A DNA stretch of 64,000 bases from Candidatus Poribacteria bacterium (GCA_963665235.2 CAXXLX010000001.1:2912001-2976000); one strand, 5' to 3'. Shown: positions 3,413 to 24,604, numbered from the stretch's first letter. The notes: generated by a model not told the origin, from the letters alone. Numbers and translations: made by a program.

Positions 3413-5299
3413 ATGCCTAGTTCGTCCACCCATTTTACGATAAAATTCATTTTAATCTTAGCGATGTTGCTTCTGAATGCCGTACCCGATGTGGACGCTT
3501 TCGCCGAGGAAAACGGGACCGAACAGAATGACCTGCTATCCACTACAACGGAACCTAAATTCCTCATCAGGCAAATTCGTTTTGAAGGGAACAAATCCCT
3601 GAACCGTAAAACCTTGAGTGACACCCTCAATTTGCGAGAAGGGGAACAGTACACCCGCGCCGAAATTATCAACGGTTTTCAACGCCTCCTCGCCGAATAT
3701 CGGAGGGCAGGCTTCGTATTTGCAAAACTAACCCCCGAATCCGTTACAGTGCCAGCAAAACAGAACCATAAATTGGATAGGGCCGAACCAGAACAGGTCT
3801 CAATTCAGGTAAAAATTAACGAGGGAAAGCGGATTCGCATCGGGCAACTTACATTTAAAGGCAATCAACTTTTCTCCCAAACCGATATCCACCGTGAACT
3901 TGACTTGAAACGGGGACAGCTTTTTACTGAAACCGTGCTGCAAGAAGGTATTGACAGAATTCAGGCCTTGTATAGTCAGCAGGGGCACCCTAAAGTTGAA
4001 ATAGAACTCACCGATGTCAAGCTCTCCGCTGAGACAAGCACAATAGATTTTCAATTGCAGATTCGCGAAGGCACAGAAGTACGCCTCAGCGAAATAAAGC
4101 TCAGCGGACTCAAAAAGACTAAAACCCACGTCGTCACCCGGGAAATTCCTGTTAAAGTTGGGCAACGTTTCAATCAGCGCAAAATTGACCAGAGTTATCA
4201 CCGCTTGCGGAACTTAGGATATTTTTACCAGGTGCATCCCAATTTGCTAGAGGCTGGCGCGACAGATGACACAATTATCTTTCATGCCAAGCTCACCGAA
4301 GCGCGCACAGGCCGTTTGAGCGGAATCCTCGGGTACGCACCGCCAGCAGAGAACGTTGACTCTGTCCCGCAACTCACGGGCGTACTAGAGTTACGGGAGG
4401 AAAATCTCATGGGAACGGGCCGCGCAGTCAACATCTATTGGAAATCCGGTTTGCTTAAAACGTTGCGTCTCGGTTACAAAGAGCCGTGGGTATTCGGCAA
4501 ACCTGTAACGCTTGGGGTGGGATATAGTCAACGCAAACAGCGGAACCCGTTTACTGCGGCTGAATCTGAAGAAAAATCGGCAAACGTCAGTCTGGCAACA
4601 GATTTCGGTAGAAGTTTGGCAGCTGAAGTGATGCTCGGTTATAAACAGATTCGGTTTGCTGGTATTCTTTCACCGTTATTGCTGACAACCTCGCTAGATA
4701 CCCAATTTCCTAATGTCAATACACAGACTGAGCAAACCGCTGCACCGGTGGAACGCGGCACAAAATATAGCCTCACGCTTCGCTTCACCCGGGATACACG
4801 CGATTATTTTCTCAATCCAACCCACGGCAGACGCGATAGTATTGCCGTTGAGGTGTCACGGAGCGATTTTAAACTCCGAAAGGTTTGGCTTGACCTCCAG
4901 CAGTATTTTCCGACATGGAAAAATCAGACCATCGCTATTGAACTTCACGGCGCAGCCGCATGGGGCGTTAACATTCCACCGACGGAGCTGTTCTATTTAG
5001 GCGGAGCTAACACGCTCCGAGGATATGATGAGGATTGGTTTTCCGGACCGCGCCGCGCCTATGCCAATTTTGAATATAGACTCCTTATAGGCAGGCAGTC
5101 CCAACTATTCACCTTCGTCGATTTGGGCGCGGTTACACTAAAAGAGCAGCCTGCTGTTTTTGATAAACTACGCGTCGGTTACGGATTTGGCGTACGGCTT
5201 GAATCCAGGGGCGGAATCCTACAGTTAGATTACGGGCTCGCCGCTGGCGACTCCGCACTCCGTGGTAAAATTCACGTGCAACTCGGCGCAGCATTTTAA
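3413..5299 (+). CDS. Omp85 (BamA/TamA) family outer-membrane protein with POTRA domains
   Basis: Signal peptide, about three POTRA repeats (IRFEGN, LTFKGN, IKLSG), LGG.NTLRGY motif and terminal Phe. Confidence 0.85.
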   Translation: MPSSSTHFTIKFILILAMLLLNAVPDVDAFAEENGTEQNDLLSTTTEPKFLIRQIRFEGNKSLNRKTLSDTLNLREGEQYTRAEIINGFQRLLAEYRRAGFVFAKLTPESVTVPAKQNHKLDRAEPEQVSIQVKINEGKRIRIGQLTFKGNQLFSQTDIHRELDLKRGQLFTETVLQEGIDRIQALYSQQGHPKVEIELTDVKLSAETSTIDFQLQIREGTEVRLSEIKLSGLKKTKTHVVTREIPVKVGQRFNQRKIDQSYHRLRNLGYFYQVHPNLLEAGATDDTIIFHAKLTEARTGRLSGILGYAPPAENVDSVPQLTGVLELREENLMGTGRAVNIYWKSGLLKTLRLGYKEPWVFGKPVTLGVGYSQRKQRNPFTAAESEEKSANVSLATDFGRSLAAEVMLGYKQIRFAGILSPLLLTTSLDTQFPNVNTQTEQTAAPVERGTKYSLTLRFTRDTRDYFLNPTHGRRDSIAVEVSRSDFKLRKVWLDLQQYFPTWKNQTIAIELHGAAAWGVNIPPTELFYLGGANTLRGYDEDWFSGPRRAYANFEYRLLIGRQSQLFTFVDLGAVTLKEQPAVFDKLRVGYGFGVRLESRGGILQLDYGLAAGDSALRGKIHVQLGAAF

Positions 5300-5355
5300 A
5301 AACCAAAAACACCGCGATATTTTTTTTGAAGAAAAATCAAACCGTTCGCAACTAA

Positions 5356-5535
5356 TACCATTTCTAATTGAAAATGTCTCTTTGTAGTAGCATAAACTTC
5401 CAGTTTGTGCGTTTTATCGTAGCATAAACTTCCAGTTTGTGCGTTTTATCGTAGCATAAACTTCCAGTTTGGGTCTTCCGTTCTCCGTTTCATTTCTAAC
5501 AACCGGTAATGATAGAATAATTAATAAAAATGGTA
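5356..5535. mobile_element. MITE copy 1 with TACCATTT/AAATGGTA TIRs, TAA TSD and 3 internal REP-like units
   Basis: The ends are essentially identical to those of 24026-24604. TAA is duplicated at 5353-5355 and 5536-5538. GTAGCATAAACTTCCAGTTTG occurs at 5387, 5419 and 5451. Confidence 0.8.
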
Positions 5536-5667
5536 TAATATAACAGAAAACCAAAACATTTTTGGCAGACAAGCGGTGCGTTTTGCAACTCATCTGATTA
5601 GCCACCGCTATCGAAAGTGTGACATTTCATTTTTTTTGAAATCGTCCAAGGCGATTGTCCAGTGCGG

Positions 5668-5968
5668 ACAAACATAGACGGGGTGTGTGTGCAGACACAT
5701 TCAGCCCCGAAACCCCAATGTTACACTTTGTGTCAAAAGTGTAACTTATGCACCGGAGCAGCCCCAAAAAGTCCGAGGCAGAACGATAAAAAAGTAGGCA
5801 GGACACACAACCGAAATCGGCGGTTGAAATGACACACTTCGTTTTTTTTGTGTTGCGAAAAAGAGAGGGCAAAAACGCTACAAACATAGACGGGGCGTGC
5901 ATTCATGCACATTCAACACCGAAACCCCAATGTTACACTTTGTGTCAAAAGTGTAACTTATGCACCGG
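5668..5968. repeat. Two ~89-bp direct repeats (5668-5756 and 5880-5968) with an internal palindrome
   Basis: Both share ACAAACATAGACGGGG...CCGAAACCCCAATGTTACACTTTGTGTCAAAAGTGTAACTTATGCACCGG. Confidence 0.8.
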
Positions 5969-5972
5969 TTTT

Positions 5973-6012
5973 GTACAAAAACTTTACACACGGGTGTGTA
6001 AAGTTTTTGTAC
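5973..6012. repeat. Perfect 19-bp inverted repeat with 2-nt loop
   Basis: GTACAAAAACTTTACACAC-GG-GTGTGTAAAGTTTTTGTAC. Confidence 0.9.
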
Positions 6013-6014
6013 TA

Positions 6015-6944
6015 ACGTGAGTTTGGAAAAAATTTTCCCTTAGTATTTCGGCAACCAGCTCGCTCCTTAGGAACGATATCTTTATAGAAGAAGCGCGTTA
6101 GTCCGGACTAGAAGCAGAGGCACACGCCCCAAATCTTAGTCCCATCGGGACGATATCTTTATAGAAGAGGGCGTTTCCGGACTAAATCTTAGTCCCATCG
6201 GGACGCTATCTTTATAGAAGCAGAGGCACACGCCCCAAATCTTAGTCCCATCGGGACGATATCTTTATAGAAGAAGGCGTTTCCGGACTAAATCTTAGTC
6301 CCATCGGGACGCTATATTTATAGAAGCAGAGGCGCACGCCCCAAATCTTAGTCCCATCGGGACGATATCTTTATAGAAGAGGGCGTTTCCGGACTAAATC
6401 TTAGTCCCATCGGGACGATATCTTTATAGAAGAAGAGGGCGTTTCCGGACTAAATCTTAGTCCCATCGGGACGATATCTTTATAGAAGAGGGCGTTTCCG
6501 GACTAAATCTTAGTCCCATCGGGACGCTATATTTATAGAAGCAGAGGCGCACGCCCCAAATCTTAGTCCCATCGGGACGATATCTTTATAGAAGAGGGCG
6601 TTTCCGGACTAAATCTTAGTCCCATCGGGACGATATCTTTATAGAAGCAGGGCGAGCCCCAAATCTTAGTCCCATCGGGACGATATCTTTATAGAAGAGG
6701 GCGTTTCCGGACTAAATCTTAGTCCCATCGGGACGATATCTTTATAGAAGAGGGCGTTTCCGGACTAAATCTTAGTCCCATCGGGACGATATCTTTATAG
6801 AAGCAGAGGCGCACGCCCCAAATCTTAGTCCCATCGGGACGATATCTTTATAGAAGAAGGCGTTTCCGGACTAAATCTTAGTCCCATCGGGACGATATCT
6901 TTATAGGGGTTAGTGCAAACCCACATTTATTATCAAACTCACGT
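6015..6944. mobile_element. MITE with ACGTGAGTTTG/CAAACTCACGT TIRs and near-perfect 7-bp TSD enclosing the 53-bp-period array
   Basis: TIRs at 6015-6025 and 6934-6944. Flanks are TGTACTA (6008-6014) and TGCACTA (6945-6951). The ends resemble IS982-family ends as recalled, not verified. Confidence 0.7.
6131..6906 (+). repeat. Tandem array of 15 37-bp hairpin repeats separated by two recurring ~16-bp spacer types (CRISPR-like appearance, REP-like)
   Basis: Repeat AAATCTTAGTCCCATCGGGACGATATCTTTATAGAAG (last copy truncated). Spacer A is AGGGCGTTTCCGGACT and spacer B is CAGAGGC(A/G)CACGCCCC. A degenerate copy lies at 6061-6090. Confidence 0.92.
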
Positions 6945-6983
6945 TGCACTATGATAAATAGAAGGGTGGATTTCGCGCGTGTT

Positions 6984-7028
6984 GTCTGAATCTCGGATTA
7001 TCACGGATTACGCGGATTACGCGGATTT
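6984..7028 (+). repeat. Short interspersed repeat GTCTGAATCNCGGATTATCACNGATT with CGCGGATTA microrepeats; second copy at ~18283-18310
   Basis: Direct sequence match between the two loci. Confidence 0.6.
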
Positions 7029-7252
7029 TAAGGTGTGTATGCGTTAAGGTTTTGTGATTAAGGGATGTTGTGCTTTTTTTGTCAGAATGCCCGTCGCATT
7101 TGGGCGAGGATGCCGCAAAGTGCGGTGGACACAGCGGACACAGCGGACGCGGAAAAAAGAGGTTTGTTGCTAACATCTACGCATTTTTTGCTGAATCAGG
7201 GAAGGTGGGGAGGCCGGGGCGGAGGCGGAAAGAAGCGGGGTTTGGGTAAAAT

Positions 7253-7333
7253 CTATAACCATATCGCCCCGCTGGGGCTATTTTGTGTTTTGTTTGGGTT
7301 TTCTATAAAGATACCGCCCCGCTGGGGCTAAGA
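7253..7333 (-). repeat. Two inverted-orientation relatives of the array repeat
   Basis: The reverse complement TCTTAGCCCCAGCGGGGCGGTATCTTTATAGAA compares with the array unit TCTTAGTCCCATCGGGACGATATCTTTATAGAA. Confidence 0.8.
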
Positions 7334-7364
7334 GCCGACTGTTCCCCTCAAGTTACGTTAGGAG

Positions 7365-7460
7365 GTCGCGTGCGAAGCAGGTTTCTACATAAGATGAATG
7401 TCGGGATTCTAGACAGGTCGAGGGGTGCCAGTCGCGTGCGAAGCAGGCTTCTACATAAGA
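7365..7460 (+). repeat. 30-bp direct repeat pair GTCGCGTGCGAAGCAGG(T/C)TTCTACATAAGA
   Basis: Copies at ~7365 and ~7431. Confidence 0.7.
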
Positions 7461-7499
7461 CATCGGACTGTTTGTAAAAAAACTTTACACACCCTCCGC

Positions 7500-7529
7500 T
7501 TGAATTTTTTCAAGAGAATGTGTTATAAT
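7500..7529 (+). promoter_or_regulatory. Putative sigma70 promoter
   Basis: TTGAAT-18 nt-TATAAT upstream of the cyclase-family gene. Confidence 0.5.
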
Positions 7530-7580
7530 ATCTATTAAGTTTTACTAATCACGAAATGCTTGTCGGAAGGAGGATATAAA

Positions 7581-8261
7581 ATGCGCCTTGACTTTCAAGA
7601 AGTACTCGATCTGTCCTATGTCGTTGATGAAAAGAGCCCGTGTGAACTACCAATCGATCCGGCCAACATTTATGCACAGGCGACGTTGGAGGAGGATGGC
7701 TACTTTGAAAGCCGTGTCGATATGTCCGGACACTACTCCACACACATGGATGCCCCCTGTTTAATGTACCCCGATGGTGCAACTATCGCTGAAATTCCGA
7801 AGGAAAAACTGACCGGGCATGCAGTCTTGATGGACTTTTCTGCAATTAAAAAACCGAACGACGCAGTGACCGCGGAGGATGTGACAGCCTGGATAGATGA
7901 AAATGGAGAAATACCTGAGGATAGCATCGTTTTTATGCGGACTGGAATGGATAGGTTCGTCTATCAGGACAACTTCAACCGGGAATGGATTGGGTTTAGC
8001 GAAGATGCGGCGGAGCTGCTTGTCAAAAAAGGTATAAAGGTTATCGGAACAGATGCGTGTAGTATTGACGCAGTGGAAGGACATCCGCCATTGCACGATG
8101 GGCTTCCGCCAGCACATCTCGTCTTCCTTGGGGCGGGCATCCCGCACGTTGAAGACCTGTGCAATTTGAGTCTACTCCCGACGCATTTCTACGTGGTAAT
8201 TGCGCCGCTAAAATTGGCGCGTAGCTCTGGTGCCCCCACGCGTGTCTTAGCGTTTGTATGA
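7581..8261 (+). CDS. Cyclase family protein (kynurenine formamidase-like)
   Basis: HYSTHMDAP, IGTDACSID and GAPTRVLA motifs. AGGAGG lies before ATG 7581. Confidence 0.85.
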   Translation: MRLDFQEVLDLSYVVDEKSPCELPIDPANIYAQATLEEDGYFESRVDMSGHYSTHMDAPCLMYPDGATIAEIPKEKLTGHAVLMDFSAIKKPNDAVTAEDVTAWIDENGEIPEDSIVFMRTGMDRFVYQDNFNREWIGFSEDAAELLVKKGIKVIGTDACSIDAVEGHPPLHDGLPPAHLVFLGAGIPHVEDLCNLSLLPTHFYVVIAPLKLARSSGAPTRVLAFV

Positions 8262-24025: not shown

Positions 24026-24604
24026 TACCATTTCTAATTGAAAATGTCTCTTTGTTGTAGCATAAACTTCCAGTTTGTGCTCTTTGTTGTAGCATAAACT
24101 TCCAGTTTGTGCTCTTTGTTGTAGCATAAACTTCCAGTTTGTGCTCTTTGTTGTAGCATAAACTTCCAGTTTGTGTGCTTTGTTGTAGCATAAACTTCCA
24201 GTTTGTGCTCTTTGTTGTAGCATAAACTTCCAGTTTGTGTGCTTTGTTGTAGCATAAACTTCCAGTTTGTGTGCTTTGTTGTAGCATAAACTTCCAGTTT
24301 GTGTGCTTTAGTAGCATAAACTTCCAGTTTGTGCTCTTTGTGTAGCATAAACTTCCAGTTTGTGTGCTTTGTTGTAGCATAAACTTCCAGTTTGTGTAGC
24401 TTTATTGTAGCATAAACTTCCAGTTTTGCTTTCTTGTGCTTTCCAGTTTGTGCTTTCTTGTAGCATAAACTTCCAGTTTGTGCTTTATTGTAGCATAAAC
24501 TTCCAGTTTGTGCTTTCTTGTAGCATAAACTTTTAGTTTGGGTCTTCCGTTCTCCGTTTCATTTCTAACAACCGGTAATGATAGAATAATTAATAAAAAT
24601 GGTA
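24026..24604. mobile_element. MITE copy 2 with TACCATTT/AAATGGTA TIRs, TTA TSD and 15 full plus 1 partial REP-like units
   Basis: TTA at 24023-24025 and 24605-24607. GTAGCATAAACTTCCAGTTTGTG recurs with a 30-33 bp period from 24057 to 24540. Confidence 0.85.

Follow-up and report, generated by a model that had tools for sequence, protein, structure and literature searches.

The stretch of DNA considered here (the window) comprises 64,000 nucleotides from the genome of a sponge symbiont, Candidatus Poribacteria (GCA_963665235.2), corresponding to C1:2912001-2976000 of a 5.31 Mb assembly with four contigs and a G+C content of 47.6%. At positions 6131-6906 it contains an array of 15 short units arranged head to tail, each consisting of a hairpin, a tail and a linker of one of two types, A or B. 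The array forms the core of a 930 bp non-coding MITE (a miniature transposable element with inverted repeats), extending from 6015 to 6944, which has 11 bp inverted ends and a 7 bp target duplication. It is probable that the array represents the expanded internal minisatellite of a non-autonomous MITE, the unit being a module that resembles repetitive extragenic palindromes (REPs) and is cognate to a low-copy transposase of TnpA-Y1 subclass 1.2. The features of the element and its immediate surroundings are as follows.

6008-6014, no strand assigned: left copy of the target-site duplication, TGTACTA, identical at 6 of 7 positions to the right copy, TGCACTA.

6015-6025, plus strand: left terminal inverted repeat, ACGTGAGTTTG; this 11-mer or its complement is found at 121 places in the genome.

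6026-6130, plus strand: left arm of the MITE, where a hairpin module of degenerate long form carries the first tail, GATATCTTTATAGAAG (6075-6090), and is joined by one extra linker and the first of the B-type linkers.

6131-6906, plus strand: array of REP-like modules, 15 head-to-tail units, each with the hairpin GTCCC-ATC-GGGAC, the tail GATATCTTTATAGAAG and a 16-19 nt linker, A or B.

6907-6933, plus strand: right arm of the MITE (GGGTTAGTGCAAACCCACATTTATTAT); its 22-mer right end is present 59 times in the genome with at most one mismatch.

6934-6944, plus strand: right terminal inverted repeat, CAAACTCACGT.

6945-6951, no strand assigned: right copy of the target-site duplication, TGCACTA; the outer repeat, where found elsewhere without the MITE, reads ...TTTTTGTACTATGATA...

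7253-7330, minus strand: two extra modules of the same family outside the MITE, CTATAA-CCATATC-GCCCC-GCT-GGGGC, 49 bp apart.

Tandem Repeats Finder (TRF) detects a single array over these coordinates (period 53, 14.6 copies, 85% matches, score 1145), and the core 15-mer TAGTCCCATCGGGAC matches exactly 15 times within it, first at 6137 and last at 6879. Successive cores are separated by 53 bp in twelve of the 14 intervals, the others being one each of 56 bp and 50 bp. This bears out an initial annotation, made from the sequence alone, which described 15 copies of a 37 bp 'repeat' with 'spacers' (the linkers of the present text) of only two types; when the units are split in the same manner, with spacers of 16-19 bp, the order of linkers it gave, A,B,A',B',A,A+3,A,B',A,Bdel,A,A,B',A', is reproduced exactly (six A, two A', one A+3, one B, three B' and one Bdel). 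Also as it described, all three GACGCTAT variant repeats (units 2, 4 and 8) are followed by a B-type linker. The converse fails, as two of the five B-type linkers (units 10 and 13) come after a standard GATAT repeat. The complementarity noted between the two linkers is likewise present, the GGGCGT of A and ACGCCC of B being exact reverse complements, and the competing hairpins can be recovered by folding: the minimum-energy structure in an A context, GGACUAA-AUC-UUAGUCC, displaces the repeat hairpin, and a B context keeps GUCCC-AUC-GGGAC. This outcome is the same under RNA and DNA parameters, with modest z-scores of -1.5 to -2.6, and the alternative hairpin consists of one 7 nt inverted match, which is equalled by 73 of 2000 shuffles. 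No open reading frame (ORF) of at least 60 aa lies within 6021-6948, and a search of the window with Rfam at gathering score and with ARAGORN found no Rfam match and no tRNA. Contigs from four DNA-type runs cover the array only as pieces of 64-308 bp, none of them spanning its whole length; the joints in these pieces probably come from other genomic copies of the same repeats.

The core 15-mer is found 39 times in the genome, 15 of these matches being in the window array, 14 in an array at C1:558187-559026 and ten in short copies. Aligning the copies by eye reveals a common MITE layout: ACGTGAGTTTG, a left arm whose long-form hairpin is degenerate and whose tail is GCTAT, a B linker, one or more hairpin modules, a right arm and CAAACTCACGT. 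The left arm is shared by single-unit copies at C1:1101096, 1634988 and 3934629. If a complete MITE is defined by exact 11-mers at both ends, the genome contains nine, ranging from 164 to 930 bp and carrying between 1 and 16 internal modules. Five of the nine are bounded by perfect 7 bp duplications (CAACTTA, TATTTAA, TTTAAGA, TAAAAAA and TATTTTA). Three further complete copies, including that in the window, have TGTACTA/TGCACTA in common; because the outer repeat without the MITE reads ...TTTTTGTACTATGATA..., these three are the descendants of one insertion into another repeat. Among 40 related genomes only one match to the 22 nt right end, with one mismatch, was found, in a single genome. 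Set against the 59 copies here, this implies that the MITE is essentially private to this lineage.

The restriction of the array to two linker types becomes less surprising when other arrays are considered. Arrays of at least five units have between one and eight linker types each, of which one or two are dominant, and the sets differ from one array to the next. The A 19-mer has 18 matches in the genome, nine in the window array and nine in the paralogous array at C1:558 kb, the right flank of which is common with that of the window copy except for an indel of about 230 bp; the B' 20-mer is found only in the window. In single-unit copies of the MITE the only linker is B, preceded by the GCTAT tail, and for this reason B appears to be the ancestral linker and the association of GCTAT with B the original junction. 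The true duplicating unit would be in a different register from the repeat and spacer split, and the linkage of GCTAT to B would not constitute a rule relating repeats to spacers. Arrays with a period of about 101 bp elsewhere in the genome show a strict alternation of two units, and a GTTTCC core is common to several linkers. A binary linker alphabet is the expected product of local tandem duplication of two variant units. That a linker may be a decayed inverted copy of the repeat, as in a REPIN-like doublet, is no more than an idea, only the 7-mer GGACTAA being alignable and 73 of 2000 shuffles performing as well. In the paralogous array, a long-form hairpin module (TTAGTCCCAGTATTCGGGCAAGCAGCCCGCTCCTCAAGGAC) is embedded in two 128 bp units (C1:558239-558366 and 558844-558971); these units show that inside a single array the module interconverts between a short and a long form.

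The module is not confined to this MITE. It can be described as a 5 bp GC hairpin, with TTA or CTA at its 5' foot, followed by the tail G-R-TAT-N-TTTATAGAA and a variable, fast-evolving linker of roughly 20 nt. Using the tail TA[TC]NTTTATAG as an anchor, 900 matches are found in the genome, compared with 45 for the same anchor reversed. At 618 of the 900 sites a perfect 5 bp Watson-Crick stem with a 3 nt loop is present at a fixed offset, and most of the remainder have the long-form hairpin. The sites group into 326 clusters, comprising 149 single modules, 96 doublets and 81 clusters of three or more units, the largest having 33. The modules share a single orientation in 160 of the 177 multi-unit clusters, and their spacing peaks at 49-53 bp. 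The stem covaries across 385 cluster-distinct units, with the first pair being G-C in 353 and A-T in 10, the second C-G in 164 and T-A in 152, and the fifth C-G in 274, A-T in 42 and T-A in 35; this pairing is lost when the column of 3' partners is slid. The tail, by contrast, is conserved as sequence and not as pairs. In singleton modules only a block of about 35 nt is conserved, with no conserved motif further upstream. Relative to crude ORF calls (about 84% of the genome), 288 of the 326 clusters are extragenic, and the clusters are distributed over convergent, divergent and tandem intergenic space in proportion to the base pairs available. There is no clear preference in their orientation relative to co-directional neighbouring genes, 98 clusters having the same direction and 73 the opposite.

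A candidate for the cognate enzyme emerges from the distribution of Y1 transposases. A search of the genome with the PF01797 profile matched 13 places, from which 11 Y1 ORFs could be reconstructed, falling into four groups. Two of these are multi-copy 137 aa tnpA genes of the IS200/IS605 type, and a third is a canonical REP-associated tyrosine transposase (RAYT) at C1:831796-832125, scoring 136 bits against REP_Tyr_transpos (cut-off 80). The fourth consists of a single gene, C1:1178425-1178895, encoding a protein of 157 aa. A forward module ends 9 nt upstream of its ATG, while reverse modules begin directly after its stop codon and run on as an array of 13 units. The motif YIKNQEKHH in this protein fits Y---Q--HH, the signature of TnpA-Y1 subclass 1.2, and is unique among the 11 reconstructed ORFs. 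Homologues 60-74% identical in protein sequence were collected from 80 loci in Poribacteria, Flavobacterium and other organisms; the subclass 1.2 Y motif is present in 76 of the 80, and the gene, present once in this genome, is found in one or two copies per genome in relatives.

The flanks of 79 of these loci were long enough to be searched for a 'hairpin plus T[AC]TAG' unit, segments 1.4 kb away serving as controls. Within 200 bp upstream, 63 loci have a forward module and 6 a reverse one; downstream, 60 have a reverse module and 8 a forward one. Modules in inverted arrangement on both flanks are found at 51 of the 79 loci. The control segments score 2 of 151 and 1 of 151. The sequence of the flanking hairpin varies by genome, and the arrangement and the TATAG-type tail persist. 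The flank-type motif is also amplified in four of five other complete Poribacteria chromosomes, at 29-138 copies (none for the control), some of them spaced by 51-52 bp; in the fifth, the tail is of another form, which lies outside the reach of the search pattern. Among the 40 relatives, the Y1 gene is present in all seven genomes with at least five copies of this genome's type of motif (in one as a fragment), and all 18 genomes without the gene have at most two copies of the motif, though the relatives are not independent of one another, the motif pattern was fitted to this genome and repeats are lost from short-read assemblies. The suggestion of the initial annotation that this is a REP-like array, or bacterial interspersed mosaic element (BIME), is supported by a family of about 900 mostly extragenic modules, and by the inverted modules that flank a Y1 gene.

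Two side observations concern the other Y1 genes. The RAYT locus (C1:830900-833400, RAYT of 157 aa) has inverted tandem arrays of a GTAG-tagged palindrome (GTAGGAGCGTGCTGTGCACGCGA, family F3 below) on both sides, and is a textbook REP-RAYT arrangement. In the IS200/IS605-type tnpA copies at C2:339792, C1:32727, C1:545730, C1:538926, C1:733800 and C2:795353, D-P-V-H or D-P-V-L replaces D-H-V-H, which is retained by the copy at C1:3153209; judging from these residues, the six are possibly inactive transposases.

By analogy with the TnpA of IS200/IS605 elements and with RAYTs, the Y1 enzyme would recognise the hairpin and tail on single-stranded DNA, and may have seeded modules around the genome. 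A separate transposase, making 7 bp duplications, would move the MITE as a whole. The number of units and the order of A and B could then arise through replication slippage or unequal recombination, involving 53 bp units and multiples of them, with B as the ancestral linker and A as a later variant. Most probably the array performs no dedicated function for the host. Several points weigh against this interpretation. That the Y1 protein recognises the module is suggested purely by their relative positions. In NCBIfam the protein scores 80.4 bits as an IS200/IS605 transposase (cut-off 55) and 31.7 as a REP-associated one (cut-off 80), and at the HuH position it has NHIH where 74 of the 80 homologues have DH[IVL]H, so that to judge by this residue it might be impaired. 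The GTAG or CGTC tag of classical REPs is absent from the module. No pair of MITE ends within 7 kb of each other in this genome encloses a transposase-like ORF that could belong to an autonomous partner, the sole enclosed ORF scanned being a Cache-domain protein. A MITE end lies within 130 bp of only 79 of the 326 module clusters (40 of the 81 with at least three units), which implies that the MITE accounts for only part of the module family. The cumulative GC skew of C1 and C2 is uninformative as to strand bias relative to replication, with neither an origin nor a terminus clearly marked. Finally, the 49-53 bp period found across arrays can be explained equally well by descent from a common module of about 50 bp or by a unit length set by the enzyme.

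This last point is the basis of an alternative, in our view unlikely, in which the Y1 enzyme itself builds the arrays: single-stranded modules would be excised and re-inserted beside the tail of a resident module, which would act as the enzyme's own target, giving head-to-tail arrays of fixed period in which slippage has a minor part. In its favour, IS200/IS605 enzymes place their insertions 3' of a short and specific target, most arrays keep to the 49-53 bp period despite their differing linkers, in many genomes the Y1 gene natively has two direct hairpins about 50 bp apart on either side, and the array beside the gene in this genome begins right at its stop codon. However, linkers are specific to each array instead of being common to several, which local duplication would lead one to expect, and singletons have no conserved target motif upstream; one ancestral unit, to which the GTTTCC core in several linkers points, can also account for the common length. 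Local duplication is therefore favoured, on account of the array-specific linkers and the common GTTTCC core. A broader scheme, which we regard as doubtful, would make subclass 1.2 a third lineage of repeat-making domesticated Y1 transposases, with a 'hairpin plus TTTATAG tail' as their cognate module, its conservation reaching from Poribacteria as far as Flavobacteriia; the enzyme of Poribacteria would lay modules head to tail at intervals of about 50 bp by single-strand cutting and joining, and the arrays could then ride on MITEs moved by an unrelated transposase. Roles for the array outside transposition have a still smaller claim. It is improbable that the host has co-opted it, as has been proposed for some REPs, as a transcription barrier or a stabiliser of mRNA ends between the genes on either side, which encode an Omp85-family protein (3413-5299) and a cyclase (7560-8261). 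The region does contain 20 terminator-like sites, against 2.5 ± 1.8 in shuffled sequence, and 15 of these are the array hairpins, weak but on the strand of both flanking genes. Nevertheless, their stems are only 5 bp long, no array is found upstream of the cyclase orthologue in 13 relatives, and neither the orientation of clusters genome-wide nor their placement, which follows the intergenic base pairs available, gives any sign of selection for such a role.

A structured non-coding RNA, processed to units of about 53 nt and with a fold switched by the type of linker, is more improbable still. In its favour, an A context gives up the repeat hairpin for the alternative one, as a B context does not, but that fold comes down to a single 7 nt inverted match that 73 of 2000 shuffles attain, the tail is conserved as sequence rather than as pairs, Rfam yielded nothing at gathering score, and no promoter-like site is found inside the array or just upstream of it. 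Moreover, the array is absent from the orthologous place in the 13 relatives, and the MITE end is all but exclusive to this genome. The least credible reading, to which we give almost no weight, is that of a degenerate or orphan CRISPR array, as implied by the 'CRISPR-like' label in the initial annotation. Like a CRISPR array, the window array has a palindromic repeat alternating with intervening segments of similar size at a regular period. Unlike CRISPR spacers, its 14 linkers are not unique, being two array-specific types and their minor variants; exact 20-mers of A and B, for which matches in viromes had been proposed as a check, have none in a viral contig collection; and inverted ends with a target duplication enclose the array. 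The window lacks cas genes, as was claimed, in so far as Cas1 (PF01867), the one cas family searched, matches only at C2:258207-259040 and C2:156873-157172, on a different contig from the window. Both matches have a genuine CRISPR nearby with unique spacers and a repeat unrelated to that of the window, one of 37 nt at C2:254257-257268, about 1 kb from the first match, and one of 30 nt at C2:148675-155725, near the second. A MITE of the F1 type (below) is inserted about 50 bp past the start of the Cas1 gene at C2:258207-259040.

The position of the MITE can also be compared with gene order in relatives. In the 13 examined, the approximately 5-5.9 kb upstream of the cyclase orthologue contain no Omp85 homologue, and the nearest 2.5 kb of this contain no array. 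In nine of them the upstream neighbour of the cyclase is instead the orthologue of the gene at C1:3703085-3703852, which lies about 784 kb away in this genome. This implies a break in gene order at the 2.2 kb repeat-filled spacer between the flanking genes (5300-7559). Beside the displaced gene, at C1:3702899-3702920, lies a MITE right end with a mismatch; by blastn at an E value of 1e-5 no repeat is common to the spacer and this second synteny breakpoint. The spacer holds other repeats besides the MITE. A segment of about 85 bp with the palindrome ATGTTACACTTTGTGTCAAAAGTGTAAC is present twice (5670-5755 and 5884-5970) and also in arrays of 213-246 bp period elsewhere, a 9 bp unit, CGGATTACG, is repeated 3.7 times at 6994-7027, and the stretch 7365-7460 contains two degenerate palindromes resembling the GTAG-tagged F3 family.

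Across the genome, TRF identifies 674 merged tandem repeat loci, totalling 187,736 bp (3.5%), of which 312 combine a period of 20 or more with three or more copies. A few families with hairpin-bearing units, F1 to F4, account for most of these repeats. F1 has a unit of 30-32 bp, and its 20-mer GTAGCATAAACTTCCAGTTTG has 898 genomic matches, in 134 arrays on C1; F2 is the 49-53 bp family of the window array, and F3 and F4 are GTAG-tagged palindromes. A second MITE family has two copies in the window, 5356-5535 and 24026-24604, with the ends TACCATTTCTAATT... and ...AATTAATAAAAATGGTA and 3 bp duplications (TAA/TAA and TTA/TTA); its core is a 32 bp hairpin minisatellite (GTAGCATAAACTTCCAGTTTG), of 2.7 and 15.9 copies respectively.

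These results remove a false CRISPR lead and explain the richness in repeats of a genome in which tandem repeats occupy 188 kb. They also provide a concrete, testable pairing between a DNA module and Y1 subclass 1.2, and extend the idea of REPs and RAYTs to Poribacteria and Flavobacteriia. In view of the break in gene order found at the repeat cluster against nine of 13 relatives, such arrays may shape genome rearrangement in sponge symbionts. They are also a likely source of spurious CRISPR calls in annotation pipelines, and of assembly breaks in metagenome-assembled genomes derived from short reads.

Of the known systems with which the array can be compared, IS200/IS605 elements resemble it in having a Y1/HuH enzyme and subterminal hairpins that act as recognition elements. 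Such elements are multi-copy, and their ends are not inverted copies of each other. Here, by contrast, the gene is single-copy, its flanks are inverted copies and the hairpins far outnumber it; the genome also has ordinary IS200/IS605-type tnpA copies, of other sequence classes. A closer parallel is provided by REPs and BIMEs, and by the REPIN clusters associated with RAYTs in E. coli, Pseudomonas and Stenotrophomonas, in which short GC-rich palindromes are likewise present in hundreds of extragenic copies, with inverted copies flanking a low-copy Y1/HuH gene. The array works like, and mostly looks like, a cluster of this kind, but it lacks both the GTAG/CGTC tag, in place of which the module has a conserved 15 nt 3' tail ending in TTTATAGAA, and the class 2 TnpA-REP protein, the enzyme here being IS200-like with the subclass 1.2 signature. 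Furthermore, the arrays are long and direct, with up to 33 units, rather than inverted doublets, and many of them are the cargo of MITEs. Clusters of REPs arranged head to tail, with adjoining DNA repeated along with the unit, have been described (PMC3733652, PMC3116915).

The BrickBuilt elements of Porphyromonas gingivalis, as outlined in their abstract, are a precedent for a minisatellite inside a MITE (PMC4596501). They too have a tandem array between a leader and a tail with small inverted ends, and are intergenic and multi-copy with a varying number of units (PMC4596501). Compared by description, they differ in having a 23 nt unit without a spacer and reported promoters, as against a 53 bp unit of hairpin and linker here, and their abstract makes no link to a Y1 transposase (PMC4596501). 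TnpA-Y1 subclass 1.2 itself is given in Table 1 of Quentin et al. 2018 (PMC6006769) as low-copy proteins of about 150 aa with the motif Y---Q--HH, listed as 'REP: no' and without ends of the insertion sequence type. The Poribacteria protein agrees in its YIKNQEKHH motif, its length of 157 aa and its single copy, and has close relatives in Flavobacterium. It differs in that the gene, like most of its homologues, is bracketed by inverted hairpin modules amplified in the genome. To judge from sequence, this contradicts the published description of the subclass and not membership of it, although the supplements of that paper may bear on the point (PMC6006769). No account of these repeats as REPs or MITEs was found in the literature on Poribacteria, nor, among the papers listed on TnpA-Y1, any REPs for subclass 1.2, subject to the same supplements. 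Tandem REP clusters and minisatellites inside MITEs are already in print, and the pairing of subclass 1.2 with a cognate module appears to be new.

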